In this document: in pieces, positions 10,385 to 40,056 of the stretch | Layout: the number at the start of each line of letters is the position of its first letter | Numbering within the stretch: the stretch's first letter is position 1 | Assembly (NCBI GenBank): GCA_033763315.1 | Contig: JANRKS010000021.1 | Coordinates: 64,001 to 128,000 of the forward strand | DNA from: Deltaproteobacteria bacterium | Lineage (GTDB): Bacteria > Myxococcota_A > Polyangia > Fen-1088 | Reading direction: 5' to 3' | Length of the DNA stretch: 64,000 nucleotides | Made by a program: the position numbers and the translations under genes | Notes under the pieces: generated by a model | What the model saw: only the letters and a program-made list of their open reading frames with translations | The model's database searches: none | What the model was told of the DNA's origin: nothing

Positions 10385-10518
10385 ACGTCTGCCCGTTTAT
10401 CGCGCGGGCTTTGGCCGTCAACCATTCACTTGGCAAACCTTGCGTGGCAAATGTGACGACTTTGCGGCAGCGCTTTGACATGCGCACGGGGCTCACAACG
10501 ATGTGCCAGGATGCGCGG

Positions 10519-11451: not shown

Positions 11452-13270
11452 GGTGATGAACCGCATCAGCGCCTGGCTGCGCAACGATCTGAGGGTGCTG
11501 CGCTTTGCCGCTGCCTATGCCTTGTTCCAGTTTGTCTTAAGCTTCTGGGACCTGCCTGGCAGCCACGGTTGGGACAACGATGGCGTCGCCCCACGCGACA
11601 TTTTCGGGGGCCTTGCGAACAACCTTACGCCGGGTCACGCGCACCGCTACCCGCTGTTCCATTACCTTGTCATCGCGATCTTGAGCTGCCCGGCTTGGTT
11701 GACCGCGGTGATCGCCTCACCCGATTGGCACATGGAATCCCTTAAAGCCAGCTTGCTGGCGGTCCCCGTCATGACGGCAGTCTCGATCGTTGCCAAGGCG
11801 CTCAGCGCAGTCATGTCAGGTGTGGCGCTGGTGGCCTTGGCCTCAATCTGTCGCGCTTGTTTTGATCAAGGCAGCGCCCGGTGGGCAGTGTTCGCGGCGG
11901 CGTTGAATTTCTCTTTCTCGTACTACGCCCGCAGCACAAATTTGGATGCGCCGTACCTTATGTGGGTTTGCCTGGCGGTCGATCGAGCCGTGGCGAACAA
12001 AGACGCTGGTCTCACACAAGTGCGCAGCCACTTGATCTGGATGGGTGTGTTTGCCGCGCTCGGCGTGGCCACAAAAGATCAGGCTTATGCGCCGTTGTTG
12101 CCGGTGCTGCTTTGGGCGTTGTTCACCCCGATGGCAGGCACGACCTTCCTTGCCCGCTGTCGGTGGCTGTGCCTGGCCGCTGCGCCCACGTATGCGCTCG
12201 CAAGCGGGGCGGCTTTGAACCCCACCGGCTTCTTGGCACGATCGAGGTTGTTGACGGGACCCAACAACGATCAATGGCAAACCTACGAAGCCACTTTGAC
12301 CGGACTGCAGGCAAACGTTGCGGACCTCGCAACCGCTTTGCCTTCGTTTTGGTGGCCGACGCCGGTGCTGGCGGTTGGCACGCTGGCAGCCGTTGTGTGC
12401 CTCGGCCGCCTTCGGCGCGACCGTCACTTGCCGCAAGCGCTCACCATCGTGCCTCTGATGGCGGGATTAGGAAACCTTGTCCTCTTTGCGTTGCTGGTGA
12501 GACGCAGCGATCATCGCTTCGTTCTGCCTTTTGGCTTTTTCATGGCCATCTACGTGGGGTATTCGGTTCGGCGCGCGCTCGCATGGGCACCAACGCAAAA
12601 TTGGATCGCACCGGTGGCCGCGTGCGCTTTGATGGCCCTTATGCTGCCATCGCCTTTGGCGCTCGTGATCACCCAATGGACAGACGCGCGGCACCCGTTG
12701 ACTGATTGGTTGGCGGCGCATGCCCGTGGCCGCGTGGTGGAGACCTATGGAGGCCTCGTCTATCAACCACACGTTGAGCGACTTACCGGCGTCACGGTCA
12801 ACCGGGTGGAGACATCACAGCCGCGTTTGCGAAACCCTTTGCTCGGTGCCAATGAAGTTTGGGGCGAGCCCTCCGGAGCCGCGGCCCGCGGCGCCGACAT
12901 CATCCTTATCTCGCAAGCGTATGCCGAGCGATTTATCGAGCATCCGTCCGCCCACGGCCGAAGGCGGCCCGCCTGGCAAGCAGAAGCACAAGCCTCTTCA
13001 CAGCGCACCGCCTTTTTCCGGGGCGCGTTGGCGGGCACGGTGCCAGGTTACCAGTTGGCTTGGCAAAGCCGCCTTTCGCCAGCCGTGTCGACGTTGCACG
13101 CGCAAGCACTGCGCGTGCACGGCAGCACAGGTTACGGCTGGCTGGTTTTCACGCGCGAAAAAGCCGGCAGCACGATCAACACCACCAGCACAGCCATAAA
13201 CTCGCCGACCACAGCCGACCATCCAAAACTACGAAGCGCCCCAGAGAACGCCATCAGCAGTGAGCCATAG
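11444..13270 (+). CDS. multi-TM GT-C (ArnT/PMT-like) glycosyltransferase
   Basis: Many TM segments, acidic WDND in first loop, TNLDAP, ATKDQ, HRFVLP; translationally coupled to the GT32 gene. Confidence 0.65.
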   Translation: MGEVMNRISAWLRNDLRVLRFAAAYALFQFVLSFWDLPGSHGWDNDGVAPRDIFGGLANNLTPGHAHRYPLFHYLVIAILSCPAWLTAVIASPDWHMESLKASLLAVPVMTAVSIVAKALSAVMSGVALVALASICRACFDQGSARWAVFAAALNFSFSYYARSTNLDAPYLMWVCLAVDRAVANKDAGLTQVRSHLIWMGVFAALGVATKDQAYAPLLPVLLWALFTPMAGTTFLARCRWLCLAAAPTYALASGAALNPTGFLARSRLLTGPNNDQWQTYEATLTGLQANVADLATALPSFWWPTPVLAVGTLAAVVCLGRLRRDRHLPQALTIVPLMAGLGNLVLFALLVRRSDHRFVLPFGFFMAIYVGYSVRRALAWAPTQNWIAPVAACALMALMLPSPLALVITQWTDARHPLTDWLAAHARGRVVETYGGLVYQPHVERLTGVTVNRVETSQPRLRNPLLGANEVWGEPSGAAARGADIILISQAYAERFIEHPSAHGRRRPAWQAEAQASSQRTAFFRGALAGTVPGYQLAWQSRLSPAVSTLHAQALRVHGSTGYGWLVFTREKAGSTINTTSTAINSPTTADHPKLRSAPENAISSEP

Positions 13271-15555
13271 CCCACAACCGTTGTCAGCGAACAAAGCAGA
13301 ATCGCGCCGCCCATGCGTGCGCACGCCGCACGCGCGTTCAAGCCCAAACCATCCATCGCTCCATACAAGTTCAGCAGATAGTCGGCACCCACGCCGATCG
13401 TAATGGGCACGGCGGCAAAATTGAGCATGTTTACGCGAATGCCAGCGCCCACCACCAGAATCTGCGCCACAAGCGCCACAGGACCAATGACCAACGCCGC
13501 AATCACCACTCGGCTAGGCTTTTGATAATAAAGCACGACAAGCAGCGAAAGCACGAGCAAGAAAACCACACACACCACGCGCGGGGCCTCCGCATGCACA
13601 AGTTTGAACAACGCGGCCATGAAAAGGAACGGCCCCCCTACCACCACCGAAGAAGGCTTCGGCGTGCTCTCGATCGCTTCGGCCAAGGTTATCATGTGGC
13701 GGCCATCGCCGTAGTCGATCGCGGTGGACGGATAGATCAAAACCGTCTTATCGCTGCTGCCATCGCGCTCGATCAGATTGCGCAACAGAGGAGGAGGAAC
13801 CTCGGCGCGCGTGACGAGCGACAAACCTGCATCGCTCCACCACAAGTCGAGGTGTTGTTTGATGTCCGTGGGCAGGTTCTCCTCGTCTGCCAGCGCCATT
13901 TGTGCTTGCAAACGTTTCAGTTTTGCGAAGCGCCGCTCTTGCTCGGCGGCTTTGGGCACGAACGTTTCAATGGTTTCGATGCGATCCACCAACGGTCGCG
14001 GCACATTCTTCAACGACGCCTCAAATGCACCGGCCATCGCTTCACGGTCGCTGGGGTTTGTTGCCAAACCGATGACCGGGTTCACCCACGATCCAAACAA
14101 GCGGTTCATTGTGGCGTCCCATGAGGCGCTGCCCGTCGCCAGGGAACGACGGTTGCGTAGCACCTCCAGGCGCATCTCGTAAAGGCCATGGCGGCGGACC
14201 TGCCAGAGGCCCACACCACACAAAGCCGCGGTCAGCGTGATCAGCGCCAAGGCCGTGCCTTTGGCCAGCCAGGGCGTGAAGAAAAACCTGCGCACCTGAC
14301 GTTCCACAGATGTGGCCTCGGCGCCGAGACGTTGTGGCCGCAACCAGGCAATCGCGATCGGCAAACAAAGGTATGTCATCAGCCACGTAGCGATCATGCC
14401 AAAGCCACCAAGGTAGCCGAACTGCGAAAAGCCTCGAAAGCCCGAGACCGCAAGCCCCCCGTAGGCCGCAGAGGCGGTGGCCGCCGCGCCTAACGTGCCC
14501 GGCAAAGCGGCGCGGGCGGCACCCACGATCGCGAATGGCAAACGTTCCTGCGTTTCCCGACGCCGATAGAACGACAAAAACAGAAGCGGATAGTTGATGC
14601 CGTTGCCCGCGATGATCGAACCTAAAAAGGCGGTATTGGAGTTCAGGTGTCCCACCATCAGGCGCCCCAGCCCAAACGCGAATAAGAGGCCGGGCAGCAA
14701 AGCCGCCAAAGCGGCGACGACGCTGGTTAGGGATCGGAAATAGAGTGCAACAAGCGCCGTCACTAACACGAGCACCACAATCGATGTGGAAGACAAGTCC
14801 GCGATGATCGCATCGTGTTCGTCGATAAAATTGGCCGCGTCGCCGGTGTAGGCCACGTTTACGCCCTGGGGAACGCCGGTGCGTTCAACTTGCTTCTGCA
14901 CATCCGCTTTGAGAAGCCGCGCGGTATCGATGTCAACGTCCGAACCGCGTAACCAAACGATGGCGATGACCGTATCGCCTTCCGGAGTTTCGAGGTACCC
15001 GTTGGGGAATCGATCCTTGGCCGCGACGTCCGCCTGAACCCGCCGCTGCAAGCTCAGCCAATCGTCGTCCTTGTCTCCGTCGTCGAGTGACACGAACAGC
15101 GGATTGGCCCTTGCCTTGCGCTTGTTGATGGCGACGGCTACGTCATCCACGAGCGAGTCGAATTGTTGGGTCGACATGAGCAGCGGTGCCCGCAGGCGCA
15201 ACCACCTGCGCTCAGCCCGCACATCCGCTTGCACCCAAGCAACGCGCGGGGCCCCTGACGCACGCAGATTGGTTGCCAAGGCTTCGATGAATGCACGGTT
15301 CTTCTCGGGGAACTTGCCGTGCGCCACCACCGTGATGTGTCCCTGGCTGGGGATACGGTCGTGGATGCTCTGCAGCGCCCGCGCGGCTTGCGAATCGGTC
15401 GGCAACAGCTCTTGCAGATCGGCTTTGACGCTCGTAAAAAGCTGCACCGTTTGCCAAGCTGGCCACGCGCACGCCAACATCACAAGTGCGGCCGCCACGC
15501 GTGGCGCGCGGCAAACCGCGCGCACGTATTGAGCGTACCAAGAGCTAAGCGACAT
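13132..15555 (-). CDS. MMPL/RND-family lipid exporter, paralog of 7883-10384
   Basis: DLQELLP, IIAGNGINYP, PITIGVGADY; ATG 15555 overlaps the upstream GT stop. Confidence 0.88.
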   Translation of the reverse strand: MSLSSWYAQYVRAVCRAPRVAAALVMLACAWPAWQTVQLFTSVKADLQELLPTDSQAARALQSIHDRIPSQGHITVVAHGKFPEKNRAFIEALATNLRASGAPRVAWVQADVRAERRWLRLRAPLLMSTQQFDSLVDDVAVAINKRKARANPLFVSLDDGDKDDDWLSLQRRVQADVAAKDRFPNGYLETPEGDTVIAIVWLRGSDVDIDTARLLKADVQKQVERTGVPQGVNVAYTGDAANFIDEHDAIIADLSSTSIVVLVLVTALVALYFRSLTSVVAALAALLPGLLFAFGLGRLMVGHLNSNTAFLGSIIAGNGINYPLLFLSFYRRRETQERLPFAIVGAARAALPGTLGAAATASAAYGGLAVSGFRGFSQFGYLGGFGMIATWLMTYLCLPIAIAWLRPQRLGAEATSVERQVRRFFFTPWLAKGTALALITLTAALCGVGLWQVRRHGLYEMRLEVLRNRRSLATGSASWDATMNRLFGSWVNPVIGLATNPSDREAMAGAFEASLKNVPRPLVDRIETIETFVPKAAEQERRFAKLKRLQAQMALADEENLPTDIKQHLDLWWSDAGLSLVTRAEVPPPLLRNLIERDGSSDKTVLIYPSTAIDYGDGRHMITLAEAIESTPKPSSVVVGGPFLFMAALFKLVHAEAPRVVCVVFLLVLSLLVVLYYQKPSRVVIAALVIGPVALVAQILVVGAGIRVNMLNFAAVPITIGVGADYLLNLYGAMDGLGLNARAACARMGGAILLCSLTTVVGYGSLLMAFSGALRSFGWSAVVGEFMAVLVVLIVLPAFSRVKTSQP

Positions 15556-17005
15556 ACGGCTCGTGCAGGGGCGCGGCTTGCAAAGGCAAGCCAAGATCGC
15601 GCAGGGCCTGTTCGGTCTCGTCCCACAAGGGAGCCAACCGCTTGTGGCGATTGACAACCGCGGGCGGCCGCATCAGACCAGCAAGGTATGCGAGCATATG
15701 CGTGACGCTCCACCGTCCCAGAGCACGGTTACGCGCCATGAATGTGGATGACGGTGCTTGAGAGCGGCAGTGTTCGCGGGCGAGCTCAAACGCCTCGTAG
15801 TGTTTCGCAATCGCCCTTTGCGGCGTACACAACGATTGGGCTCGGCGCCGCGCCGCCTCCGAAACAGCGCGGCGGCGAACCGGGTTCATAAGCAATGACA
15901 AGGTGGCCGCAGCGAACGCTAGATTGGCCTGCGTTTCGGGTTGCGGCTCAATCAACATGCCGGTCTCGTCATCTTCAATTTGGTGGCTTACCCCCATACC
16001 ATCGGCAAACGCGACAGCCGGCAAACCACACCACGCCGCTTCACTTATCACCTGCCCATACGTTTCTGACAGCGACGTGTAGACGAAGAGATCCGCGTGG
16101 CGGTACCAAACAGGCGCCATGCTCGCGGCGCATTCCCCAGGGAAGAAGGTGCGGTGGGCCACGCCCAGTTCATGCGCGAGGGCGCGAAACGCGTCGTGGT
16201 CGGGGCCGTCGCCCACCAACGTCAATGTGGCGTCGGGCGCATAGGGAGCGATTTGCTGCGCGAAAATACAGAGCAGCCGAGCGATGGCTTTTTCGCGTGT
16301 ATGGCGGCAGAGCACCAGCAAACGTCCGCCGCGTTTGGCTGTGGGATCGAAGGGATCGCTGTCGCCGGGGGCCTCGAACATTTGTACGTCGATGCTTCGG
16401 GGAATGACAGAGATGGGCACGTGAACGCCGCGGTCCTGCCAGTAGTGCTTCAGCCCCTCCGACAGCACGATCAGTCCGTCGCTGCGGTTGTAGGTTGCCG
16501 CCGCTTGCTTTTCCAACTTCGGAACCGCCCATTGCTCCAAGAACCGGCGCACGCGCGCGCTGCGGTTCAGCCAATCCGGAAGTACGACGTTGTAAACACT
16601 AGGGAGGTGAATGGTGTTCACGCAAAGAAACGGCACGCGCTTCGCCAAACGTAAGAACACGCCATACTCAGTGAACGCCGATCCTGTTTGGCCCAAGAGC
16701 ACATCGAAGTCGGCCTGCACGCCCGCACGCAGCGCCGCCCGCGACGGCAACGGCAGCTGAACACCGGGATGATTACGCAACGGAATGGCCGGCACCATGA
16801 GATGCCGCCGAGGCAACTCACGAGCGGTTGCCAACGGATCATGGGGCCCCACGACGGTCACTTGATGCCCGCGCCTCACAAACTCCCGATAGAGGCGCTG
16901 CGAAGCGAATGACGACCCGTTCGCGTAGGGAATCCTCACGTAGTCATTGAGGATACCGATGTGGTGCGGCCAAGCGGGCCCTTGTGCCTCTTGCATGGGT
17001 GCCAT
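15545..17005 (-). CDS. GT4-family glycosyltransferase
   Basis: NGSSF, EK, LVGDGPD, SLSETYGQVISEAAWCGLP (EX7E motif). Confidence 0.88.
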   Translation of the reverse strand: MAPMQEAQGPAWPHHIGILNDYVRIPYANGSSFASQRLYREFVRRGHQVTVVGPHDPLATARELPRRHLMVPAIPLRNHPGVQLPLPSRAALRAGVQADFDVLLGQTGSAFTEYGVFLRLAKRVPFLCVNTIHLPSVYNVVLPDWLNRSARVRRFLEQWAVPKLEKQAAATYNRSDGLIVLSEGLKHYWQDRGVHVPISVIPRSIDVQMFEAPGDSDPFDPTAKRGGRLLVLCRHTREKAIARLLCIFAQQIAPYAPDATLTLVGDGPDHDAFRALAHELGVAHRTFFPGECAASMAPVWYRHADLFVYTSLSETYGQVISEAAWCGLPAVAFADGMGVSHQIEDDETGMLIEPQPETQANLAFAAATLSLLMNPVRRRAVSEAARRRAQSLCTPQRAIAKHYEAFELAREHCRSQAPSSTFMARNRALGRWSVTHMLAYLAGLMRPPAVVNRHKRLAPLWDETEQALRDLGLPLQAAPLHEPYVA

Positions 17006-19524: not shown

Positions 19525-19526
19525 TC

Positions 19527-21337: not shown

Positions 21338-21343
21338 GAGACT

Positions 21344-27591: not shown

Positions 27592-28397
27592 GCAACAGAG
27601 GCCGCCAAAGACAGACGCTGTTGTTGGGCGATGACTCTTGCGCGCGCTTCGTGCCACAGGGGCGAGCCAAAGGATGCATTATAGCGGTCTAAACAACACT
27701 GAACGTCTTGCGGCTGCAGCGATGTCAAGAAATAGGGATAGTCATCCCCCAAAAGCTCAACCGCGCCTGGCTCCTTGCCGCCTATGAACACCGCGTGTGA
27801 CGCTGAACAATTGGCAAGCTTCACAACCGACTTCGTCACATCAAGCCGGCCCGAAAAGTGCGCGTTGTAGGCGCGGAGCCGTTCCCGCCAATCCGCCTTC
27901 TTGAAATCCAAGAGCGCAACGCCGCGCAGCCCACCTTTGCTGCCGATGGAATTAACCGTTTCGCCCACGTAGACAAGTTTTGCCTGCATCACAGGGTGGT
28001 GCGGCAGAATGTGGGGATCGGCGTGGTGGTAGAACACGAATGCCCGCCCCGCAGGGTATTGCGCGAGGTACACATCTCTTGTTGCCTCGCTGCCAAAAAG
28101 AACCGCCGCACAGGCGCCTTCACAGTCGCGCAACAGGCGCGGATCATGGTCCAGGGCATCGAGGATCAAGATGTTTCGCTTCGCATGCAGAGCGTGATGC
28201 CTATGTGGCTGGCTTTTGACGCACACAATGATGCTGTCGCGCACGCCCCGCAACGCCCACAGCGAGGGCCCTGCGACGGCCACACAGTTCCAGCCTCGGC
28301 AGCGCAGGGCTTCCGCCACCTGCATGCCCCTCATCGTGAACGATGGTCTGCGGCGGTGTGACCAAAAGATGACCGGCCTAGACCGCAACGTGGACAC
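27558..28397 (-). CDS. hypothetical protein, possibly a degenerate GT-B glycosyltransferase
   Basis: Open frame coupled to the upstream flippase (GTG 28397 after GGGAG); KLAN...FIG.KEPG..E weakly resembles a GT-B C-terminal motif. Confidence 0.45.
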   Translation of the reverse strand: MSTLRSRPVIFWSHRRRPSFTMRGMQVAEALRCRGWNCVAVAGPSLWALRGVRDSIIVCVKSQPHRHHALHAKRNILILDALDHDPRLLRDCEGACAAVLFGSEATRDVYLAQYPAGRAFVFYHHADPHILPHHPVMQAKLVYVGETVNSIGSKGGLRGVALLDFKKADWRERLRAYNAHFSGRLDVTKSVVKLANCSASHAVFIGGKEPGAVELLGDDYPYFLTSLQPQDVQCCLDRYNASFGSPLWHEARARVIAQQQRLSLAASVAQYERLFAELT

Positions 28398-29877: not shown

Positions 29878-30075
29878 GCGTCCTCCGCTGTATCCGAAAA
29901 CCGTTCATTCGCCCGCAGCCTTACCACTCGCGCCGGACATCGCACGAAACGAAACGGCGACAGCGCGCGCCGGCCTTCACCGCGGCCACGTGAATTGAGC
30001 GTAACGTGAGATTTTCGTTCTCGTCGTCAACCCGCTACGACGTTGCCACGGAAGCCCATTACCATCGAGCCACAG

Positions 30076-31299
30076 ATGCATCGCAAAGGGCGTCATTGCT
30101 CGCTGGGGTTTTCACGCCGCACCGTCGTTGCCGGGTTGTTGTCGGCGGGTGCGGCGACCCGGTTCGATGGGGACGCGCCCTGCTCGAGGAGTCCCTTGCT
30201 GTCGACGTTTTGGTGTCCCTCAGCTTTGACCGTGGAGCAGCACACAGATCCCGCCATCGCTAAGCTGGCTGCCCTGCACAGTCCGGCCCTTGCCTTTACG
30301 AACCCAAACATGTGGCCCGTTGACGTGTCGTATAGCTGGCACGACGGCAGCGACCTGTACTTCGAGGACGTAGGCGGCAAACAGCGAACCGTTCTCACCA
30401 ATCGGCTGCTTCGCGAACCGGCAGCCTTCTTTGCACCCAGCGCCGATCACCGCCGCAAGCACTACATCAACAGCCCAGGCGATGGCCCACAGCAAGACGC
30501 GTGGGCGACGGCGTGGCTACGCATTCAAGGACACACGCCCGCAACGGCACTTTATCCACCCACGCAATACGTTCACGCATTTTGGTTGAACCGCCACCTG
30601 GGCCTCTTGGCGATCCAGTATTGGTTCTTCTACCCATTTAATGACTGGGTGAATCGCCACGAAGGCGATTGGGAGCACGTGGCCACGGTGTTCAAAGGCC
30701 CAACCGCGCTGGAGAATCCCGGCGCCTTCACGCCGGTGGCCACGTTCTTCTATTTTCATGAATGGGTACATGAGGCAAAACAGGTACTGCACCTCAGAGG
30801 TGGTTCTGCCGCTGCAAAGCATCCCGTTGTTTTCGTGGGGGGTCAGGGCGACATGTGGAACCTGTGGCACTGTTCACATCGACAAAGCGGCGGCAGCTAC
30901 CCTTGCGCTGGTAGGTTTGCGAACGCAGGTGCCGACAGGGGTTGGCTGGTGTCACCGTCCGAACAGGTCCAGCCTCCCGCGAGGATCATCCTGCCCGAGG
31001 ACTTTAGATTGGTCATGCTGCCTGAGCCTGACCACGTGTCCGAACGGCAGTGGCCTCAACTTTGGTGGCTGCGTTGGAACCTGTTCTTTGGGCAACGCCG
31101 GATCGACGGCAATTTGCCATTGATGGGTGCGCTCGCGCTGGACCATCCGCCACATCACCCCGGGCAACACGTCGACTGGAATATGCGTACCAAGCGTCGG
31201 CTGTGGCCCGGCATTGCGCCGCCAACTAACCCGCTAGTCTTGCCGGCAGCGGTTCGGGATCGCCTCGTAACAATAGACGACCGTGCAAAGCTCACGTGA
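30076..31299 (+). CDS. Vps62/NPP1-like domain protein, possible Tat substrate
   Basis: IQYWFFYPFNDW...HEGDWEHV, HPVVFVG; SRRTVVAGLLSAG near the N-terminus. Confidence 0.6.
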   Translation: MHRKGRHCSLGFSRRTVVAGLLSAGAATRFDGDAPCSRSPLLSTFWCPSALTVEQHTDPAIAKLAALHSPALAFTNPNMWPVDVSYSWHDGSDLYFEDVGGKQRTVLTNRLLREPAAFFAPSADHRRKHYINSPGDGPQQDAWATAWLRIQGHTPATALYPPTQYVHAFWLNRHLGLLAIQYWFFYPFNDWVNRHEGDWEHVATVFKGPTALENPGAFTPVATFFYFHEWVHEAKQVLHLRGGSAAAKHPVVFVGGQGDMWNLWHCSHRQSGGSYPCAGRFANAGADRGWLVSPSEQVQPPARIILPEDFRLVMLPEPDHVSERQWPQLWWLRWNLFFGQRRIDGNLPLMGALALDHPPHHPGQHVDWNMRTKRRLWPGIAPPTNPLVLPAAVRDRLVTIDDRAKLT

Positions 31300-31499
31300 A
31301 AATTCTTTTCCCAATTGAAAGAGATTCGCCGCAGCCTTGCAACAACATGCGACCTGACCGCCGACGAGTTGTCACCAGGTTGTAAGCCCAAACGCCCTTA
31401 CGGGCGCCATGTTGTCCTTGCGATGGTTCCCACACTACCAATTGCGTTCGCAACGGCACCCGCCCTGTCAGCCCATGAAACTGCGAGACGCGTTTGACG

Positions 31500-32474
31500 A
31501 TGCGCGAATACAGAAGGGTTTTGGTCACCGGCGGAAACGGATTCATCGGTTCACGCGTTGTGCGCGCTTTGGTATCGCGTGGCATCACGGTCCGCTGTCT
31601 TCTGCGAACCACGTCCAATACGTCACGGATCGATGGTCTGCCGTTTGAGCGCGCGATGGGCGACGTGCGCGACGCGGAATCCGTTCGCCAAGCCTTCAAC
31701 GGCTGCGACGCGGCCGTTCATCTCGCCAGCCTCTCAAATTGGAATGACATTGATTCCCCCTTAATGACGGAGGTGGTGATGGGCGGCACGCGCAACGTGT
31801 TGGACGCGGCCAAGCAATGTGGGAACAAGTTGGTGGTGTTCGTTTCATCGGCGGCGGCGGTCAATGGCTCCGAAACGCCGGAGGTCTTTGCTGAGAATGC
31901 GGAGTTCACGCTGAACCACGCGAAATTGTCTTATGCGCAACACAAGCGCGACGCCGAGGCCTTGTGTGCGCAAAGCGGCGTCCCAGTGGTGGTGGTGAAC
32001 CCCACAGAGGTGTATGGCCCGGAAGACATTGGTTTGATCACCGCAGGTAACCTCGTTGATTTTGCGCGTAGCTCACCAGTGATGGTATGCGACGGTGGCA
32101 CCAGCATCGTCCACGTTGACGACGTGGCCGACGGGATCGTCCAGGCGTTGCACCGGGGCCGTCCTCACGAGCGTTACATCCTTGGCGGCGACAATCTGAC
32201 CGTGACGGAACTGGCGCAGATGACGTTGAGTCTGGTGGGACGCAAAGCACGCGTGGTAAAATTGCCGAAGACGGCCATAAGGGCCTTGGCCTCCGTGGGG
32301 CGCGCCACGAAATTGCCGTTGCCCTTTAACCCGCGGGTTATCCCTTACGCCACCCGCTATTGGTTTACCGACAACAAGAAAGCCCGCACGGAACTCGGCG
32401 TTGACTTTCGCTCCGCCGAGGCAACGCTGCGCCCCACCTTGCAGTGGCTGCAACAAACGGGACACATCTCATGA
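31500..32474 (+). CDS. NAD-dependent epimerase/dehydratase (extended SDR, HpnA/DFR-like); candidate 3-keto-sphingoid reductase
   Basis: TGGNGFIG, YAQHK, VNPTEVYGP, VHVDDVA, ERYILGG; stop overlaps the PKS start (ATGA). Confidence 0.85.
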   Translation: MREYRRVLVTGGNGFIGSRVVRALVSRGITVRCLLRTTSNTSRIDGLPFERAMGDVRDAESVRQAFNGCDAAVHLASLSNWNDIDSPLMTEVVMGGTRNVLDAAKQCGNKLVVFVSSAAAVNGSETPEVFAENAEFTLNHAKLSYAQHKRDAEALCAQSGVPVVVVNPTEVYGPEDIGLITAGNLVDFARSSPVMVCDGGTSIVHVDDVADGIVQALHRGRPHERYILGGDNLTVTELAQMTLSLVGRKARVVKLPKTAIRALASVGRATKLPLPFNPRVIPYATRYWFTDNKKARTELGVDFRSAEATLRPTLQWLQQTGHIS

Positions 32475-35400
32475 GCAGGCTCCCCTCGCCCATCGCGATT
32501 GTAGGGATGGGCTGCCGCTTCCCAGGCTCCCCGAACATTCCAGCTTACTGGCGCACGATCAGGGATGGCAAAGTGTGGCTCGCGCCTGTGCCGCGATCGC
32601 GCTGGAACCACGACCTGTTCTATAGCCGCGACAGGGGCTTTCGTGACGCCAACAAGACCTATGTGGATCGCGTCTCACTCATCGATGGGCCTGAACTATT
32701 CGCGCCTGAGGCATTCGGGATCGCCCCCAAGCGCGCGCGTATCATGGACCCCCAGCAGCGCTTGTTCTTGGACGTCGTGCGCGCCGCCCTTGAGGACGCC
32801 GGCTATGCGAAGCGAGAGCTGAAGCGGGATCGCGTTGGCACGTTTGTGGGCGCCTGTGTTTCCGACTTCATGGATCTGGTCACCGTACGTATGCGGGCAA
32901 CGCTGTTGGCCGGCGGCGAATTCGGAGCTCCCTTGCAGGGCGACGAGATCCACAACGAGCTCACAAAGAACGTTGTGCCTCTCGCCGCACATACAGTGGT
33001 TGGGTCACTGCTCAACATGGTGGCGGCGAACGTGAATCAGGCCTATGACTTCGGCGGTCCTGCGTTCAGCACGGACGCTGCCTGCTCATCGGCCTTGGTG
33101 GCCCTTCATGAAGCCATGCTGCATCTGCGACATGGCACCTGCGACACGGCCATCGTCGGCGGTGTGTACATGGTGCTTTCACCCGACAACGTGCTCGGAT
33201 TTTCGCGTATAGGGGCTGTGTCTGAGGCCAACATTTGCCGGCCGTTCGATCAGCGCGCCGACGGCTTCGTGGTGGGCGAAGGCATTGGCGCGGTGGTCTG
33301 CAAACGCCTTGAAACCGCGCTCGCCGACAAAGATCGAATTTATGCCGTCATCCCAGGGATGGGCATGAACAACGATGGGCGCGGCGACGGTCCGATGACG
33401 CCTCGTAAAGAAGGTCAGCTCGCCGTTCTGGAGCGGGCCCATCAGGACAGTGGCATCGCGCCTTCGCGGGTTGAAGTTGTGGAGGCGCATGGCACCGCCA
33501 CACCGGTGGGAGACGCCACCGAGGTTGCCGCGTTGGCCGAGTTCCGCGGCGATACATCGGGCCGGCCCTGTGCCCTCTCATCAGCGAAGGCCAACATCGG
33601 GCACTCCATGAGTGCGGCCGGCATCGCCGGCTTGATCAGGGCAACGCTGGCGGTTCATCACGCAACGATTCCGATGCACGCTTCATACGAGCAGCCCCGC
33701 GCAGACCTTCGGCTGCATGAGAGAGGCCTATACATCCCCAACCGCAGCATCCCCTGGCAGCGCCAGGACGCGCTTCCTCGCACGGTAGGTGTCAGCTCTT
33801 TCGGCTTTGGTGGCACCAACTGCCACGTCATCGTGCAAGAGCCATCCACCTCATCTGCAAGCACAACTCGTGTATTCATGAGCCATTCGATCGAGTCGCC
33901 GCCGCCGCGGCCCGAACTGTTTTTGCTTTCAGCACCAACGGCCGACTTGCTCTGTGAGACAGCCGTTGACCTTCTGGAAGCCTTCGTCGAACAAAACGAT
34001 GTGTCGTTGGCAGGCATCGCCGCGAGCCTCGCATCGCGCACCGCTTCGCCTCACCGTGCCGCCTTCATCGCCAGCTCTCATCAACAATTCATCGCGGCGC
34101 TGCGTTGGCTGGCAGCGCCCTCGTCGGAAGAGCCTTCACACATCCACTTAAATCGCGAACCAGTGGGCTCTGATGTGCCAAAGCTCGCCATGCTCTTCCC
34201 TGGGCAGGGCGCCCAAAAGCCCGACATGGCGCGGCCGCTCTACGAACGCTTCGGTGTCTTTCGTGAAGCGCTGGATGCTCTCACAGCAGACTGCGCGATC
34301 GATGGGCGTGCGTTGTTGTCTTATCTTTACCCAACCAACGGCGCACGAGAGAAGGCGCGTGCCACGCTATCGCGCACAGAGATCTGTCAGCCCCTCATGG
34401 CCTCACTGGGCCTTGCAAGCGCTGCGTTCTTTGATGCCCTGGGTGTCCGTGCGCACGCGGTCGCAGGCCACTCCTTGGGTGAATTTGCAGCCGCTGCGGC
34501 CGCGGGCATTCTGCCGGCACACGAGGCGGTGCAGCTCGTCGCTCGCAGAGGTGCACTCATGGCGTCTATGGCTTTGCCTGATTCAGGAGCCATGCTTGCT
34601 TTGTCCACCGATGCGGCCACCGCGCAAAGAGGTGTGTCACAGCATGATGGATGGGTTGTAGCCAACATCAACCACGCCCGGCAAACAGTGATAGCGGGAC
34701 CGCGCGCCTCATGTGAAGCGGTGGCCACTCACTTTCGTGAGCTCTCCATCAAGGCCGTTGCCCTTGACGTATCACATGCCTTTCATTCGCCGTTGATGGA
34801 CGGCATCACGCAGCCCTTCACCTGCTTGGTCAAGCAACTACCGCTGGGGCCAGCAAAGATACCCTTTGTCAGCGCTGTGGAGCCGTCGCTCAGCCCGCTT
34901 GCGCCAGAGCAACTGCGCGCGGCCTGGACGAGGCACGCCACCGCGCCCGTAGATTTCATTGAAACAGTGAGGTCGCTGCACGAGCAAGGATGCCGCGTGT
35001 TCCTGCAAGTGACGGGCGGCCATAGCTTATTAAACATGGCGCGACACACGCTGGCCCACACAGATCCAAGCTGCTCGTACTTGGCCATCACTCAGGATGA
35101 GGGGGACGACGGCACCACATGCCTGCAGACCCTCGCGCGGCTCTTTACGCTTGGCTTCTCCGTGGATGCGCGAGGCCTTGAGGATCCAGCCGCAGACAGA
35201 ACCGCCGTCTCGCTGCCGCCATCGCGCCTGCAAACACGAGCGCTGTGGCCCGTCAAACGCGAAACCGTTGCCGCCACCCCACACACCGTCAGCATGCCCA
35301 ACAACGACACCACACCGATGATGCAGCCCAAGCCTCAAGAACCGGCCGCCGGCGGCATGGCCACCGAATCCCCCGCAACGAGACTGAGGGCCCTGTTTGC

Positions 35401-38400
35401 GCAACAGATGGCGCTGATGGATGCGCATGTGGAGATCATCCGCAAACAAAACGAACTGCTTGCGCAAGCCGCTCAAAGCCCGGCTGCAGAGTTGGCGCCC
35501 TTGAGGCCAGCCGCGCCGGCGACGTCGGCCCCCCCCGTCGTTCAAGCCGCGGCCGTCGCTGCCAGCGTATTTGAGCAACTTCGAGGTGTGGTGAGCCGCA
35601 TCGCTGTCACTCCAATTGAAGGGCTGCATTCGCGCACGCGCCTCGGAGCGGATCTTGGGTTCGACTCGTTGATGATCACAGAGCTTTCGGCAGCCCTCAC
35701 AGAGGCGTTCAACGGGCTGACCTTGCCTCGCCGCTTGTTTGAAACGGATCTAACGTTGGGGACGTTGGAAAAGGAGATCCGCGACCGCGTCCAAGCGCCC
35801 GAACCAGCGACGAAGGTGGCCCAAGAGATACGCCTGTTTGAACCAAAGTGGGTGGCGCGTCCGCTCCGCCGCAACGCAAGCACACCATCTGAGAATGGCG
35901 CGGTCGTTCTCCTCAGTGCTGGTGATGATTGGGCTCCCGCACTGGCGAAGGCACTAGAACAGCGTGGACGCACCGTGAGAGCGACAAGCAGCGTACAAGA
36001 CCCGTCGCTGCTCAGCGCCCATGTGATCGATCTGCGTCTACTTTCCATCCATGGCACGAACGATGCCGTAAACCTTCTGCAAAGCCTGCGACAAGTGGCG
36101 CAGCGGCGGCCAAGCACATGGCATGTTCTTGCTCACACGCAGAACGCCGCACCCGTGGGTGGTTTTCTTCGCTCGCTTAGCCACGAGGCCTATGGAGCTC
36201 AGTTGGGTTCCGTCGCGTTGGACGATGACGTGACGCCGTCACCAGAGTTTATAGAGGCACTGGTGCAGACCCTGCTGTCTGGCAAGTTTGACGAGGAGGT
36301 GCGTTTCACAGTGGCGGGCGGCCTCGGCCCCTTGTCAACGCAGTTTCATGCCCACGCCTTGCCTTCAACGTTCCCCTCCGCTGCAGGTGTGTTGCTGATT
36401 TCGGGCGCCACGGGTTCCATCGGCGGCAAGCTCGCGCGGCACTACGCCTGCAGCCAGGCGTCGTTGGCACTGCTTGGCCGCAAACCTGCGGACGCGCCAG
36501 ACGTCTCAACGTGGCTTGCTGAATTGCGTTCACTTGGTGCAAAGGTTCACTACGCGAGCTGCGACATAACGGATGCGTCAGCTGTGAACAAAGCGGTTCT
36601 TGACGCGCGGGCGGCTTTGGGTCCGATCACGGCCTGCCTTCACGCCGCGGGCGAGACAGACGATCACCCGGTTCACGCACCCTTTACGGACGCAACAGCC
36701 GCCGTGGTAGCAACCAAAGTGGACGGCGCAGAGAACCTTTGGAACGCACTTCAGAACCAACCGCTGATCACCTTCGTTGCACTTGGTTCGTGGGCGGCAC
36801 GCTTTGGCAACCGGCACCAAACAACGTACGCGTTTGCGAACGCTTTGCTCGCGTCCGTAATGTCACGCTTTGAAAGCACACGCCCACAGGTACGCTGCTG
36901 CGTGCTGGAGCTGCCTGCTTGGCGGGGCACGGGGATGGTAACAAAGTTACCTGTCGCCGCGCGCGTGCAGCTTGAAAGCCAGGTGGAGACACTGGCGGAT
37001 TCGGAAGGTGTCAACGTTATTGCAGCAGCCCTTTCTGGTGCGCTGGCGAGCGGCACCTACGTGGTGGCGCGACGCCTGCCTCCGATCGAAGAGACCTTCG
37101 GTTGGACACAGACGCTGGCTCCTGATGCCCCTGGCTATCTTTCCTCGCACGTCATCGCCGCACGCCCTGTCCTTCCGTTGGCCGGCGCGATCGATCTCAT
37201 GTTGCCCGCCCTCGCCCACCAAGGCATCAAGCTGCCCCTGGCACTGCGAGACGTGGAGGTCGTGCAGGGCGTTGTTCTCGAAGGCGACTCGGCAACGGTG
37301 CTCACCCGCGTGCGCAATGGTGAAGCCGGCACAATCGTCGAGACGATTAGGCTTGATGATCGAAACCAGATCGGGTTTCGGGCCACCTTGAGCGTCATAG
37401 ACGATCTTCAACCTGTGCAGCTTGGTGACTTGCGAGAGGCTACGTTCGGCGTTGAGCACTTCTATCAACACGCCACATTTCACGGCCCGGCCTTGCGGCC
37501 ACTGTTGCAAGTCCGTGGCGTAAGTCAGCACGCGATCTCCGCGCTATGCGAAGCGTCCAGTGTCGAGGGCGGCACGACGCTTGTCAGTGGGCTCGATGGC
37601 GTCCTGCAGGTCTTTGCCTTCTGGTCCGCACATACGTTGGGGCGCGCAGGCTTGCCGTTGGCGATCGACGCGATCCACATCCTCCGCCAACCCGTGGCGC
37701 ACGAGGTTCTGTATATTGAAGCCACCGTTGCCACCAACGAGGACGGAACGATGCGCGGCGACGCCGATGTGCGCGACGAACACAACCAACTGGTGTTCAG
37801 GCTCCGGGGTTTCAAAGGCGAACCTCGCGATCTCACCCGACTCGCGGCCGGCCGTAGCCTCGCGTCCGCACGTGTCTTGCCGGAGCGCGAGACGGTATTC
37901 GATGCGCCGCTTGAACACACCAGCGTGCAACACTTTCCAGAGGTGCAAGAGCTGGCGCGCAGAATCACCGCTGCGAAGACCGCGGGAATGCAGATTCCCT
38001 ATTTTCGCGCCCACGATGGCATAAACGGAGCCACCGCATCACTGCACGGACGATCGCTGCTGAACTTCTCTTCGTACAACTACCTCGGCTTTTCAGGTCA
38101 TCCCGAGGTCACGCGCGCCGCCCAGCGTGCGATTGAAAAGTTCGGCTCTTCGGTGTCTGCCAGCCGGATTGCTTCAGGCGAACGACCGCTTCACCAGCAA
38201 CTGGAGCGCGCCCTGGCAAAGCTTCTCGGCAGTGACGATGCCCTTGTGATGGTCGGCGGCCACGCAACCAACGTGTCCATCATCGGTCACCTGCTTGGCC
38301 CCGCAGACCTGGTGATCCATGACAGCCTCGCGCACGATAGCATTCTCGGTGGGGCGCGCTTGTCAGGCGCACGACGACGTCCGTTCCCACACAACAATGT

Positions 38401-39166
38401 GGATGCCTTGAGGCGGATGTTGCGGGAAAGCCGCACCCAAGCGCGGCGCGTTCTGCTCGCCGTGGAGGGCGTGTACAGCATGGATGGCGACCTGGCACCG
38501 CTTGACAAGCTCATCGAGCTCAAGCGTCAGTACGGCTGTCTGCTGCTCGTGGACGAGGCCCATTCATTGGGCGTCATCGGACCAACCGGCGCCGGCGTTG
38601 GAGAGCACTTCGGCGTCAATCGCGGCGACGTAGATCTGTGGATGGGCACGCTCTCGAAGTCGCTCGCCAGTTGCGGTGGTTACGTCGCTGGCGTGCGGCA
38701 CCTCATCGAATACCTGCGTTACAGCTTGCCGGGCTTCATCTACAGCGTTGGCATATCACCGGCCAACGCGGCCGCCGCATTGGCGGCACTCGATCTGATG
38801 GAAAGGCAGCCTGAAACGGTGGCGCGCCTGCAAGAGCGCTGCCGATACTTCCTGACTCTTTGCGAAGGCTTAGGCATTAACACCGGCCCCTCGCGAGGGT
38901 CAGCGATCGTGCCTTGCATCGTGGGCAATTCCGCCCTCTGCATGCAACTTTCGCAGGCTCTCCTCGCGCGTGGCATCAACGTGCAGCCCATCGTGTACCC
39001 GGCCGTGGAAGAGGATCAAGCGCGTCTTCGCTTCTTCATCTGTGCCACCCACACCGAAGAACAGCTCCGGCAAACCGCCAGCGCGTTGGCGCAAGAGTTG
39101 TTTCGGTTGCAGCCGCCTCACATGATCGATGCGATTGACCGCCACACCGTGGCCAACGGAGGATAG
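32471..39166 (+). CDS. type I PKS (KS-AT-ACP-KR-DH) fused to a C-terminal alpha-oxoamine synthase / serine palmitoyltransferase-like domain
   Basis: KS DAACSS, HGTAT, NIGH; AT GHSLG and HAFH; ACP LGFDSL; KR GATGSIG..Y..AN; DH H.IAARPVLP; AOS NFSSYNYLG, DEAHS, GTLSKS. Confidence 0.92.
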   Translation: MSRLPSPIAIVGMGCRFPGSPNIPAYWRTIRDGKVWLAPVPRSRWNHDLFYSRDRGFRDANKTYVDRVSLIDGPELFAPEAFGIAPKRARIMDPQQRLFLDVVRAALEDAGYAKRELKRDRVGTFVGACVSDFMDLVTVRMRATLLAGGEFGAPLQGDEIHNELTKNVVPLAAHTVVGSLLNMVAANVNQAYDFGGPAFSTDAACSSALVALHEAMLHLRHGTCDTAIVGGVYMVLSPDNVLGFSRIGAVSEANICRPFDQRADGFVVGEGIGAVVCKRLETALADKDRIYAVIPGMGMNNDGRGDGPMTPRKEGQLAVLERAHQDSGIAPSRVEVVEAHGTATPVGDATEVAALAEFRGDTSGRPCALSSAKANIGHSMSAAGIAGLIRATLAVHHATIPMHASYEQPRADLRLHERGLYIPNRSIPWQRQDALPRTVGVSSFGFGGTNCHVIVQEPSTSSASTTRVFMSHSIESPPPRPELFLLSAPTADLLCETAVDLLEAFVEQNDVSLAGIAASLASRTASPHRAAFIASSHQQFIAALRWLAAPSSEEPSHIHLNREPVGSDVPKLAMLFPGQGAQKPDMARPLYERFGVFREALDALTADCAIDGRALLSYLYPTNGAREKARATLSRTEICQPLMASLGLASAAFFDALGVRAHAVAGHSLGEFAAAAAAGILPAHEAVQLVARRGALMASMALPDSGAMLALSTDAATAQRGVSQHDGWVVANINHARQTVIAGPRASCEAVATHFRELSIKAVALDVSHAFHSPLMDGITQPFTCLVKQLPLGPAKIPFVSAVEPSLSPLAPEQLRAAWTRHATAPVDFIETVRSLHEQGCRVFLQVTGGHSLLNMARHTLAHTDPSCSYLAITQDEGDDGTTCLQTLARLFTLGFSVDARGLEDPAADRTAVSLPPSRLQTRALWPVKRETVAATPHTVSMPNNDTTPMMQPKPQEPAAGGMATESPATRLRALFAQQMALMDAHVEIIRKQNELLAQAAQSPAAELAPLRPAAPATSAPPVVQAAAVAASVFEQLRGVVSRIAVTPIEGLHSRTRLGADLGFDSLMITELSAALTEAFNGLTLPRRLFETDLTLGTLEKEIRDRVQAPEPATKVAQEIRLFEPKWVARPLRRNASTPSENGAVVLLSAGDDWAPALAKALEQRGRTVRATSSVQDPSLLSAHVIDLRLLSIHGTNDAVNLLQSLRQVAQRRPSTWHVLAHTQNAAPVGGFLRSLSHEAYGAQLGSVALDDDVTPSPEFIEALVQTLLSGKFDEEVRFTVAGGLGPLSTQFHAHALPSTFPSAAGVLLISGATGSIGGKLARHYACSQASLALLGRKPADAPDVSTWLAELRSLGAKVHYASCDITDASAVNKAVLDARAALGPITACLHAAGETDDHPVHAPFTDATAAVVATKVDGAENLWNALQNQPLITFVALGSWAARFGNRHQTTYAFANALLASVMSRFESTRPQVRCCVLELPAWRGTGMVTKLPVAARVQLESQVETLADSEGVNVIAAALSGALASGTYVVARRLPPIEETFGWTQTLAPDAPGYLSSHVIAARPVLPLAGAIDLMLPALAHQGIKLPLALRDVEVVQGVVLEGDSATVLTRVRNGEAGTIVETIRLDDRNQIGFRATLSVIDDLQPVQLGDLREATFGVEHFYQHATFHGPALRPLLQVRGVSQHAISALCEASSVEGGTTLVSGLDGVLQVFAFWSAHTLGRAGLPLAIDAIHILRQPVAHEVLYIEATVATNEDGTMRGDADVRDEHNQLVFRLRGFKGEPRDLTRLAAGRSLASARVLPERETVFDAPLEHTSVQHFPEVQELARRITAAKTAGMQIPYFRAHDGINGATASLHGRSLLNFSSYNYLGFSGHPEVTRAAQRAIEKFGSSVSASRIASGERPLHQQLERALAKLLGSDDALVMVGGHATNVSIIGHLLGPADLVIHDSLAHDSILGGARLSGARRRPFPHNNVDALRRMLRESRTQARRVLLAVEGVYSMDGDLAPLDKLIELKRQYGCLLLVDEAHSLGVIGPTGAGVGEHFGVNRGDVDLWMGTLSKSLASCGGYVAGVRHLIEYLRYSLPGFIYSVGISPANAAAALAALDLMERQPETVARLQERCRYFLTLCEGLGINTGPSRGSAIVPCIVGNSALCMQLSQALLARGINVQPIVYPAVEEDQARLRFFICATHTEEQLRQTASALAQELFRLQPPHMIDAIDRHTVANGG

Positions 39167-39168
39167 CG

Positions 39169-40056
39169 ATGCCACTATTTGCACGCTCAGACGGAGAGTT
39201 GGTGCACACCGAAACACCCGTACGAAGCATTTTGCCGTACGTGATGCGGGGCCGAAACGAAAGCGCGATCTATCATCAGGAAACGTACGACATCACGCGC
39301 ACACGTTCGTGGCTGCGTCAGTTCAATCGGGCCCGCGGTAACAAGCTGCCAGCCAGCTTGTTTCATCTGTTCTTATTTGCATGCGCCCAGGGCCTACACC
39401 GCCGCCCCGAACTAAACCGGTTTGTCTCAGGCGGTCGCCTCTACCGACGCAAAGGTGTTTTTATTTCGTTCGCGGCCAAGAAGGCGTTCAAAGACGACGC
39501 GCCCTTGGTGACCATCAAGCTGTCGTTTCCAGAGATTGAATCATTCGAGCACGCGGTCGATCGCATAAACGAAGCGATTATGCAGGGCCGTGGCGACCGG
39601 AGCACCACCGTGGATAAAGAGCTGGCTTTGGCGATGGCGCTGCCACGTTGGTTGCTGCGCGCGGTGATGGCGCTGCTGCGGTGGCTCGATGGTATGAATC
39701 TTAAGCCGCGCTTCATGATTGAAAGTGATCCTCTCTACACAAGTTTGTTTGTGGCGAACCTGGGCTCCGTGGGGTTGGATCGTGTGTTCCATCACCTTTA
39801 CGAAGACGGCACGGCCAGCGTTTTTGGCGCGCTTGGCGTGCCACGCAAGGCAACCGCGTTAGATCGTCACGGACGCGTCCAGACGCACGACGAGGTTGAG
39901 GTGAGGTGGACGCTCGACGAACGAGTGGCCGACGCCTTCTATTGCGCAGCCAGCTTGAAGATCGCCAGGCGCATCATTGAGGATCCGGCGCGTCACTTCG
40001 GCGCGGAGAACATGACGCTTCCGGCTGTAGAAGAAGCGGCCCTGGTTTCAGGTTGA
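39169..40056 (+). CDS. stand-alone 2-oxoacid dehydrogenase E2 / CAT-like acyltransferase domain protein
   Basis: LNRFV.G.RLY.R, FVANLGSVG, TLDERVADA (DHR to DER variant); no lipoyl domain; starts 2 nt after the PKS stop. Confidence 0.75.
   Translation: MPLFARSDGELVHTETPVRSILPYVMRGRNESAIYHQETYDITRTRSWLRQFNRARGNKLPASLFHLFLFACAQGLHRRPELNRFVSGGRLYRRKGVFISFAAKKAFKDDAPLVTIKLSFPEIESFEHAVDRINEAIMQGRGDRSTTVDKELALAMALPRWLLRAVMALLRWLDGMNLKPRFMIESDPLYTSLFVANLGSVGLDRVFHHLYEDGTASVFGALGVPRKATALDRHGRVQTHDEVEVRWTLDERVADAFYCAASLKIARRIIEDPARHFGAENMTLPAVEEAALVSG

Follow-up and report, generated by a model that had tools for sequence, protein, structure and literature searches.

A polyketide synthase fused to an α-oxoamine synthase in a probable myxobacterial operon, best read as a variant of the polyketide-derived sphingolipid route

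Introduction

What does a bacterium make with a polyketide synthase (PKS) whose last domain is an α-oxoamine synthase (AOS)? The question is raised by a gene at 32471..39166 (+) in a 64,000-nucleotide stretch of contig JANRKS010000021.1 from a member of the Polyangia, the whole of which is called the window here. Bacterial sphingolipids have long been tied to a free-standing serine palmitoyltransferase (SPT), and the first PKS route to them was described in 2025, in Pseudomonas (PMC12134224). The PKS-AOS gene is best read as a fused variant of the PKS-derived sphingolipid route, one that lacks an enoylreductase (ER) and is accompanied by a dedicated reductase and by a candidate acylase of a new kind. 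We propose, with confidence that is about evenly balanced, a one-module type I PKS with an AOS of the type of SgaB, the condensing enzyme of the Pseudomonas route, which would join a fatty starter, one malonyl unit and then L-serine into a 3-ketosphingosine-type base. On this reading the gene is a second PKS route, differently built, and surveys that count standalone SPT alone would therefore misjudge which bacteria make sphingoid lipids.

The PKS-AOS gene and its catalytic domains

The open reading frame (ORF) is intact and encodes 2231 amino acids from an ATG at 32471; the frame is also open from an in-frame GTG at 32444, which would give 2240. The ATG shares bases with the stop codon of an upstream short-chain dehydrogenase/reductase (SDR) gene (ATGA), and two bases beyond the TAG stop (39164-39166) lies the ATG of a downstream acyltransferase gene (39169), preceded by GGAGGA. 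Because of the overlap upstream and the two-base gap downstream, the three genes look like one operon; there is no G+C break at the PKS-AOS gene. Pfam domains, with residues numbered from the GTG, follow in the order ketosynthase (KS, 15-415), KS-AT linker (418-555), acyltransferase (AT, 584-897), acyl carrier protein (ACP, 1045-1109), ketoreductase (KR, 1315-1480), dehydratase (DH, 1550-1791) and, as Aminotran_1_2, the AOS (1872-2215), at E-values from 3.7e-06 for the ACP to 6.4e-70 for the KS. Neither an ER nor a thioesterase family appeared in the Pfam scan of the protein. An earlier note on this DNA had described a single gene with this order and without ER or thioesterase, and the intact frame and the Pfam domains bear it out, as they do the two motifs it named, HAFH in the AT and GTLSKS in the AOS.

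The residues expected of each active site are in place. The KS (32486..33688, +; PF00109 6.4e-70, PF02801 1.9e-33) has its Cys-His-His set, with the Cys in DAACSS, and the AT (34193..35134, +; PF00698 5.8e-39) has GHSLGE and HAFH, the latter a motif that we take to mark malonyl-specific domains. The single ACP (35576..35770, +; PF00550 3.7e-06, one stretch), whose serine stands in DSL, lies ahead of both the KR (36386..36883, +; PF08659 4.1e-34), with its Gly-rich site, Tyr and the last Asp of the 'LDD' position, and the DH (37091..37816, +; PF21089 2e-07, PF14765 5.1e-07), with HxxxAxxxxP and DxxxQ. The pyridoxal phosphate (PLP)-dependent AOS, the putative release domain (38057..39088, +; PF00155 9.1e-54), has the His, Asp/His and Arg of the family and the Lys in GTLSKS. 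In an alignment of 51 full-length sequences (the window protein, 10 orthologues from related loci and 40 from the protein search) the catalytic residues checked were each kept in 50 or 51: the KS Cys and both His in 50, and GHSLGE, the D-S-L of the ACP, the KR Tyr and Asp, the DH His, Pro, Asp and Gln, and the AOS His, Asp, His, Lys and Arg in all 51. Residue by residue, HAFH was kept in 50 (H), 42 (A), 51 (F) and 51 (H) sequences. By the usual motif rule, the conserved Asp suggests a B-type KR that would give a D-hydroxy product.

The fusion is widespread. When the AOS part was searched against long proteins, at least 1735 relatives with such an AOS on a long protein were found (matches at E<=0.001 among 8000 candidates scored), centred on Myxococcota. 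Domain order in the best 120, read by blastp with the window's own domain pieces, was KS-AT-ACP-KR-DH-AOS in 82, from many independent assemblies; the remainder were mostly cut at contig ends or were shorter variants. Named sources include Kofleriaceae, Myxococcales, Archangium, Myxococcaceae and Opitutaceae, and some of the contigs carrying the fusion are 1.3 and 4.1 Mb long. This recurrence rules out an assembly chimera, an artefact that the earlier note had held open. A search of the literature on polyketide, oxoamine synthase and SPT fusions in bacteria found no description of this one.

Family membership and phylogeny of the AOS domain

Membership of the AOS family is clear from the PF00155 match (9.1e-54) and from 54 solved AOS-family sequences that match at E<=1e-20. 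The nearest solved structures are almost equally close, a Thermus AOS (249 bits), the Sphingobacterium SPT (235), plant LCB2a (224) and KBL (224), and more distant are E. coli BioF (168 bits) and CqsA (112 bits). In the alignment the Lys-loop motif of the window domain, GTLSKSLASCGGYVAG, is close to GTFSKSLASLGGFVAG of the Sphingobacterium SPT (3a2b).

To place the domain more finely, trees were built from the AOS pieces of 80 related loci (designated by L numbers below) and from references labelled by NCBIfam cut-offs: one SPT over its cut-off, 12 SPT-like sequences from the same phylum, four ALAS, three KBL and two BioF. Hits shorter than 300 amino acids and identical rows were dropped, so that 118 hits became 104 rows, the window included. 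Searches of nine genomes reached through the loci gave no reference SPT over a curated cut-off; a Caulobacteraceae sequence (L097), scanned directly, scores 579 against 500 on NF047599 and is the only equivalog-grade SPT in the trees. Two quick trees, with LG+G4 (104 rows) and with a C20 mixture (39 rows), were given SH-aLRT branch support. Both put the window domain inside a long-branched clade with 100% support, which holds 78 of the 104 rows in the first and 22 of the 39 in the second. BioF falls with ALAS and KBL in a group apart from this clade (80% and 87%), and the SPT clade neighbours the clade of the window only across a near-zero branch (80-87%). In the SPT-versus-BioF/KBL comparison that the earlier note had called for, then, the window domain stands outside BioF, KBL, ALAS and canonical SPT alike.

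What unites the clade is a carrier protein: every member is fused to, or stands beside, a carrier-protein line. The layouts include ACP-AOS proteins of about 1170 amino acids in Planctomycetota that begin with a fatty acyl-AMP ligase (FAAL-ACP-AOS), KS-ACP-DH-AOS in Verrucomicrobiota, FAAL-ACP-KS-AT-ACP-AOS-SDR in Streptomyces, KS-AT-DH-ER-KR-ACP-AOS in one cyanobacterium and KS-AT-ACP-KR-DH-AOS in myxobacteria, so that sister layouts reach Planctomycetota, Verrucomicrobiota, Actinomycetota and Cyanobacteriota. The clade also takes in AOS genes of Burkholderia, Paraburkholderia and Bordetella that stand alone, just after a PKS gene of the order KS-AT-DH-ER-KR-ACP. For the Pfam scan the Rhodopirellula baltica locus L063, which has an internal stop in frame, was left out and L047 took its place. 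One further member, L080, is a FAAL-ACP-AOS gene typical of Pirellulaceae found in a metagenome-assembled genome labelled Nitrosopumilus; it is nested among Rubripirellula in the tree, and its assignment to Nitrosopumilus is likely a binning error.

The sphingoid reading of this domain has points against it already at this level. It scores below all curated NCBIfam cut-offs, including those of the three SPT models (319.4 against 640 for NF047600, SPT-CFB; 273.6 against 500 for NF047599, SPT-BetaP; 214.8 against 670 for NF047603), and the SPT clade (14 rows, 98%; 7 rows, 95%) excludes the clade of the window. Nor did the approximately unbiased (AU) test reject a tree that joins the carrier-linked clade to BioF (log-likelihood difference 9.39, p 0.166). 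The deep order of the AOS subfamilies in these trees is tentative.

These last results bear on a rival account in which the PLP domain is a BioF-type biotin enzyme or the fusion is an assembly chimera after all. The bioF model (TIGR00858) does give the domain its top NCBIfam score, and the AU test leaves the sister position to BioF that neither free tree recovered. That score is 351.3, however, against a cut-off of 426.45, and it lies below the 371.5 that the genome's own KBL obtains on the same model; on the KBL model the window domain reaches 309 against 460. The genome has a BioF of its own, a long and fully supported branch parts the clade from BioF, and the fusion recurs in the 82 relatives described above, some on megabase contigs. 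We regard this account as very improbable indeed. The data support a C-terminal domain that is a bona fide AOS placed to off-load an ACP-bound chain.

Comparison with SgaAB and the choice of amino acid

The nearest published system is SgaAB of P. fluorescens MYb115, where C24-C28 sphinganines are the joint product of SgaA, a monomodular PKS that works iteratively, and the AOS SgaB (Peters et al. 2025, PMC12134224). According to that report, purified PfSgaB makes 3-ketosphinganines and takes L-serine in strong preference to alanine and glycine, SgaC is a KDSR-type classical SDR, and homologous clusters come mostly from Burkholderia (3452 of 6101), with 319 from Bordetella. Its genus table holds no named myxobacterial genus, and the words 'domain' and 'fused' and the string 'Myxoc' are missing from its main text. 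The Burkholderia and Bordetella AOS loci in our trees match these clusters in layout and genus range. Like SgaAB, the window gene has a type I PKS that would pass an ACP-bound chain to an AOS to give a long-chain base, with an SDR to reduce the ketone, and its AOS shares the fully supported clade with the Burkholderia and Bordetella genes of SgaAB layout. The differences are in construction. SgaA-like PKSs are KS-AT-DH-ER-KR-ACP, fully reducing, with a separate AOS, whereas the window protein is KS-AT-ACP-KR-DH, without ER and with the AOS fused; in place of the classical SDR there is an extended SDR of the epimerase / 3-beta-HSD type; and an E2-fold acyltransferase is coupled in the operon. 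A side observation from one of the sister loci is an LpxC-family deacetylase gene (PF03331 1.5e-66) between the SgaA-like PKS and the SgaB-like AOS of Burkholderia sp. Bp8963 (L034:8812-9723).

Other systems are more distant. The canonical bacterial arrangement, an SPT working with an ACP, an acyl-ACP synthetase, CerR and bCerS as in Caulobacter, has in common with the window a PLP enzyme that joins an acyl thioester to an amino acid with decarboxylation, the conserved PLP Lys, His, Asp and Arg, and the trio of condensing enzyme, extended SDR and acyltransferase. Unlike that system, the window AOS groups apart from SPT in the trees and stays below each of the three SPT cut-offs, its substrate would be made on a fused PKS module, and the acyltransferase has an E2/CAT fold where bCerS has a GNAT fold. 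RedL, PigH and SxtA release their chains through a terminal AOS, and lines of this kind resemble the window protein, by layout, in a C-terminal AOS on a carrier-protein line as the chain-releasing step. In fungal fumonisin (Fum8) and sphingofungin (SphA) biosynthesis an AOS likewise releases a polyketide chain to give a sphingoid-like amino lipid, although these AOS proteins are separate enzymes and SphA (9pep) matches the window domain weakly, at 108.9 bits against 234-249 for the bacterial SPT and the Thermus AOS. The comparison with fumonisin, prodigiosin and SxtA chemistry made in the earlier note thus gives way to SgaAB; the off-loading role it assigned to the AOS stands. Table 2 of a 2013 survey (PMC3870968) gives seven non-redundant AOS layouts, among them A-CP-PLP, CP-PLP, A-CP-KS-AT-PLP, CP-CP-PLP, KR-CP-PLP and A-CP-Luc-PLP, and KS-AT-CP-KR-DH-PLP is not one of the AOS layouts in that table.

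Serine as the co-substrate is where this comparison matters most. A further point against our proposal is that the window AOS, which by analogy would be SgaB-type, is tied to PfSgaB by layout and genus range. Were the amino acid glycine or alanine instead, the product would be a 1-deoxy-type amino-enone, an amino alcohol or a cyclised alkaloid. The position of the domain outside the SPT clade and below the SPT cut-offs fits such a product, and so does the layout of the Streptomyces FAAL-ACP-KS-AT-ACP-AOS members of the clade, shared with RedL, which uses glycine. 1-Deoxyceramides, moreover, are described as abundant in nature (PMC11334938). On the other hand, the sole biochemically tested enzyme tied, indirectly, to the clade is PfSgaB, and it is serine-specific according to PMC12134224. 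The Lys-loop resembles that of the Sphingobacterium SPT, and the glycosyltransferases encoded nearby would need a hydroxyl group. Glycine or alanine therefore seems to us a doubtful choice, and L-serine is kept in the proposal.

Starter unit, extension and release

What was observed is the gene, with its domains, residues, family and linkage. The proposal that follows goes beyond this in its starter, in how many extensions it assumes, in the amino acid, in the sequence of tailoring steps and in the product. The KS would accept a long-chain fatty acyl group, which an adjacent FAAL and ACP would deliver in most relatives and which would here presumably come as acyl-ACP or acyl-CoA. The AT would load malonate on the internal ACP, a single Claisen extension would give the 3-ketoacyl-ACP, and the KR and DH would turn this into trans-2-enoyl-ACP. 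Since there is no ER and no thioesterase, release would fall to the C-terminal PLP domain, by condensation with an amino acid, most likely L-serine, and loss of CO2, to yield a 2-amino-3-keto-4-ene long-chain base. The coupled extended SDR would then reduce the ketone and the E2-fold acyltransferase acylate the base. The product might next be glycosylated, and the MMPL protein whose gene lies upstream might export it. A sphingoid-type 3-keto base is the best reading because the off-loading domain is an AOS that does not group with BioF and because an SDR and an acyltransferase are coupled to it.

That the AOS receives a dehydrated chain is argued from the shorter variants among the best 120 relatives, eight KS-ACP-DH-AOS and five KS-DH-AOS, which have lost AT and KR but retain DH together with AOS. 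Should the DH really pass an enoyl chain on to the AOS, sphingosine-like bases could be made unsaturated without oxygen or a desaturase. No AOS is known to act on a 2-enoyl thioester, and this counts among the points on the other side.

A ready-made fatty acid starter is favoured because relatives carry a FAAL, in most cases along with an ACP, immediately ahead of the PKS-AOS gene. Among eight more distant loci from the phylum sample, all eight have a FAAL gene directly upstream of the PKS-AOS gene and five an ACP match; among eight closer loci scanned by Pfam, three have a FAAL (L027, L030 and L037), which is three of the four loci of FAAL type (L027, L030, L032 and L037; ACP match in L027). 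These four also carry tailoring genes, a CMAS-type methyltransferase in L032 and L037, an acyl-ACP desaturase ahead of the PKS in L030 and L037 and an AurF-like di-iron protein behind it in L027 and L030, which suggests branched or cyclopropanated, further oxidised bases. The FAAL and tailoring neighbours, together with a KS that scores 315 bits on the model of Pks13, a long-chain acyl condensing enzyme, favour one extension over de novo iteration.

The same evidence has its gap in the window itself. No FAAL or free ACP gene lies near the PKS in the window, and a FAAL is missing from its nearest relatives (L014, L017-L019 and L021) as well. In the genome no close orthologue of the relatives' FAAL was found (at most 28% identity over substantial alignments, none of them on this contig). 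Since there is neither a FAAL or ACP near the gene nor a close FAAL orthologue in the genome, the proposal does not account for how the KS is primed here; it is also to its cost that SgaA is called iterative in PMC12134224.

Might the same enzyme then be iterative, in the manner of SgaA or of an enediyne PKS, building much or all of its chain from malonate before AOS release, to a conjugated polyene without ER or to a saturated chain if an ER acts in trans? The missing loader gene and the iterative PKS of the sister system speak for it. So does the order KS-AT-ACP-KR-DH, in which the ACP stands ahead of KR and DH and which is typical of iterative PfaA and enediyne synthases, and the PfaA model (TIGR02813) matches both the KS-AT part (524.3 bits against a cut-off of 1010.1) and the KR-DH part (80 bits, PfaA positions 2081-2365). 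Kinship is another matter. In place of the tandem ACP array of PfaA there is one ACP; no PfaB-, PfaC- or PfaD-like neighbour was found among the 34 window ORFs scanned; and the C-terminus is an AOS, not the phosphopantetheinyl transferase of enediyne synthases. Among solved structures those of modular PKSs (7zma and CurL) come nearest to the KS-AT, the nearest KS being that of the trans-AT PKS 7zma, at 547.6 bits, and the 60 best of 66 solved KS-AT matches include no enediyne synthase. The Pks13 score is nearly equal to that of the best KS model (338 bits), no ER-type gene is conserved beside PKS-AOS, and the FAAL genes directly upstream in all eight distant and three of eight closer loci indicate a preformed starter. 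We judge an iterative synthase unlikely, and return to a single extension of a fatty starter. The term 'PfaA-like', which the earlier note applied to the domain order, accordingly holds for that order alone. Of its claim that one polypeptide makes the acyl chain and converts it to a 3-keto sphingoid-type base, the base remains the best reading in view of AOS release and the coupled SDR and acyltransferase; synthesis of the whole chain is improbable in view of the FAAL genes in relatives.

The coupled reductase and acyltransferase

The upstream partner is an extended SDR of the NAD-dependent epimerase / 3-beta-HSD family (31494..32474, +; PF01370 8.6e-31, PF01073 1.1e-23). Its best NCBIfam models, all below cut-off, are HpnA (222 bits), SdmB and OleD, lipid 3-keto or 3-hydroxy enzymes, and it is likely the reductase of the 3-keto group. 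Orthologues stand upstream in nine of 10 complete close loci at 58-62% identity (L030 and L037 give 72% and 69% over short end fragments). An SDR-type domain is fused behind the AOS in Streptomyces (L031) and, in Pfam lists, in P0055, P0106 and P0110; SDR homologues also adjoin standalone SPT-like genes in L131 and L132.

The downstream partner (39169..40056, +), of 295 amino acids, is an E2/CAT-fold acyltransferase with the motif HHLYEDG and a weak PF00198 match. H208, H209, E212 and G214 (HH..E.G) are invariant in 25 of 25 sequences. The top Foldseek matches of its AlphaFold2 model (pLDDT 85.7) are E2 catalytic cores (E 5.2e-14, TM 0.81 on target), and a protein atlas places it among 'E2 family' clusters. 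Because no lipoyl domain was found in the 295 residues, nor a subunit-binding one, it is a free-standing CAT/E2-fold acyltransferase and not an E2 subunit proper. It likely acylates the base, and would then be a new candidate ceramide synthase. Of the 80 related loci, 12 have this gene downstream of the AOS, and in L129 and L130 it abuts standalone SPT-like genes. Across a sample of 151 genomes of the phylum, the window genome included, orthologues occur in 57: in 11 of 16 genomes with PKS-AOS, 26 of 38 with a standalone SPT-like gene and 20 of 97 with neither, or in 37 of 54 with either AOS type against 20 of 97 without.

The linkage of both partners loosens with distance, and these counts belong with the points against the proposed pathway. 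Of the eight more distant PKS-AOS loci, just one has the SDR next to the gene and none the acyltransferase. Twenty genomes have the acyltransferase and neither AOS type; in 34 of the 38 genomes that have a standalone SPT-like gene, no member of the acyltransferase family lies within 6 kb of it; and in 14 contexts from genomes without PKS-AOS (L083-L096) no AOS or SDR was found within about 9 kb of the acyltransferase.

Distribution of PKS-AOS and SPT-like genes

Does the PKS-AOS gene occupy the place of an SPT? The window genome (7.63 Mb, 90.85% complete) has three AOS-family genes, PKS-AOS, a BioF (427.5 against 426.45) and a KBL (636.6 against 493), and no standalone SPT was found in it at that completeness. 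Among the 151 genomes 16 have PKS-AOS, 38 a standalone SPT-like gene (best model SPT-CFB at 528-555 bits, below 640, for domain pieces) and none has both. The chance of zero overlap would be 0.007 if genomes were independent; kin are not, so that the figures overstate the case, a last point to be set against our reading. The pattern fits a PKS-AOS that stands in for SPT, and lineage may equally explain it.

The wider locus and the fate of the lipid

Upstream of the operon lie genes for two MMPL transporters, a GT32-like glycosyltransferase, a GT-C and two GT4 glycosyltransferases, and among these wider upstream genes only two are linked to PKS-AOS elsewhere. The MMPL-family transporter at 13132..15657 (-; PF03176) has orthologues of 49-51% identity next to SDR-PKS-AOS genes in L014 and L021 and is a possible exporter of the lipid. 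The GT4 glycosyltransferase at 15545..17005 (-; PF00534, PF13439) has a homologue (37.5%) directly before SDR-FAAL-PKS-AOS in L137, one of eight loci examined, and possibly acts in the same pathway. A glycosyltransferase with a DXD sugar-binding region (10411-11451, +; PF04488, weak PF04572, the Gb3-synthase conserved region), belongs to families whose characterised members include eukaryotic glycosphingolipid glycosyltransferases.

Closer to the operon, a block at 20528-26782 (+) encodes a CTP_transf_3 CMP-sugar cytidylyltransferase, a split transketolase (N and C), a class-III aminotransferase, an SDR, a HAD phosphatase and a NeuB-family synthase. Together these genes resemble a set for making an activated nonulosonic or ulosonic acid, and none of them has a match in the 80 related loci. 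The block is followed by a fatty acid hydroxylase family protein (26785-27591, +), whose best curated match is the ornithine-lipid hydroxylase OlsE (128 bits against 475) and which may act on the lipid of the operon or on another.

In the genome, none of five lipopolysaccharide (LPS) markers was matched at 90.85% completeness (LpxC, KdtA as Glycos_transf_N, LpxB, the LpxA C-domain and LptD), and there are six Omp85/BamA-family matches; the organism may be a diderm without lipid A. An LpxC match is missing in 75 of the 151 phylum genomes. A link between PKS-AOS and the loss of LPS is unsupported: the share of genomes without LpxC is 10 of 16 for those with PKS-AOS and 58 of 97 for those with neither AOS type, and 31 of 38 SPT-like genomes have it. 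A role of the lipid as an LPS substitute is a bold possibility only.

Taken to its furthest, the locus would describe a complete pathway. The DH-AOS pair would set the 4,5-double bond on the assembly line before the base exists, independently of oxygen and without a desaturase; the E2-fold protein would add to the known ceramide synthases a third kind, unrelated to the others; and the lipid, glycosylated (possibly with an acidic nonulosonic sugar from the NeuB and CMP-transferase genes) and exported by MMPL pumps, would serve as the outer-leaflet lipid of a diderm in which no lipid A pathway was found. As a whole this scheme is speculative, and we would not expect all of it to hold.

Two further groups of genes complete the window. 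At 45373-51397 (-) two ABC transporter genes, one with a C39 peptidase domain, and an HlyD-family adaptor form a bacteriocin/peptide-type export set that is unrelated to PKS-AOS. Four ORFs have no Pfam family and no match in related loci (27558-29877, -; 30043-31299, +; 19203-20531, +); the ORF at 28378-29877 is weakly like SpoVB/MOP-type flippases (33.8 bits).

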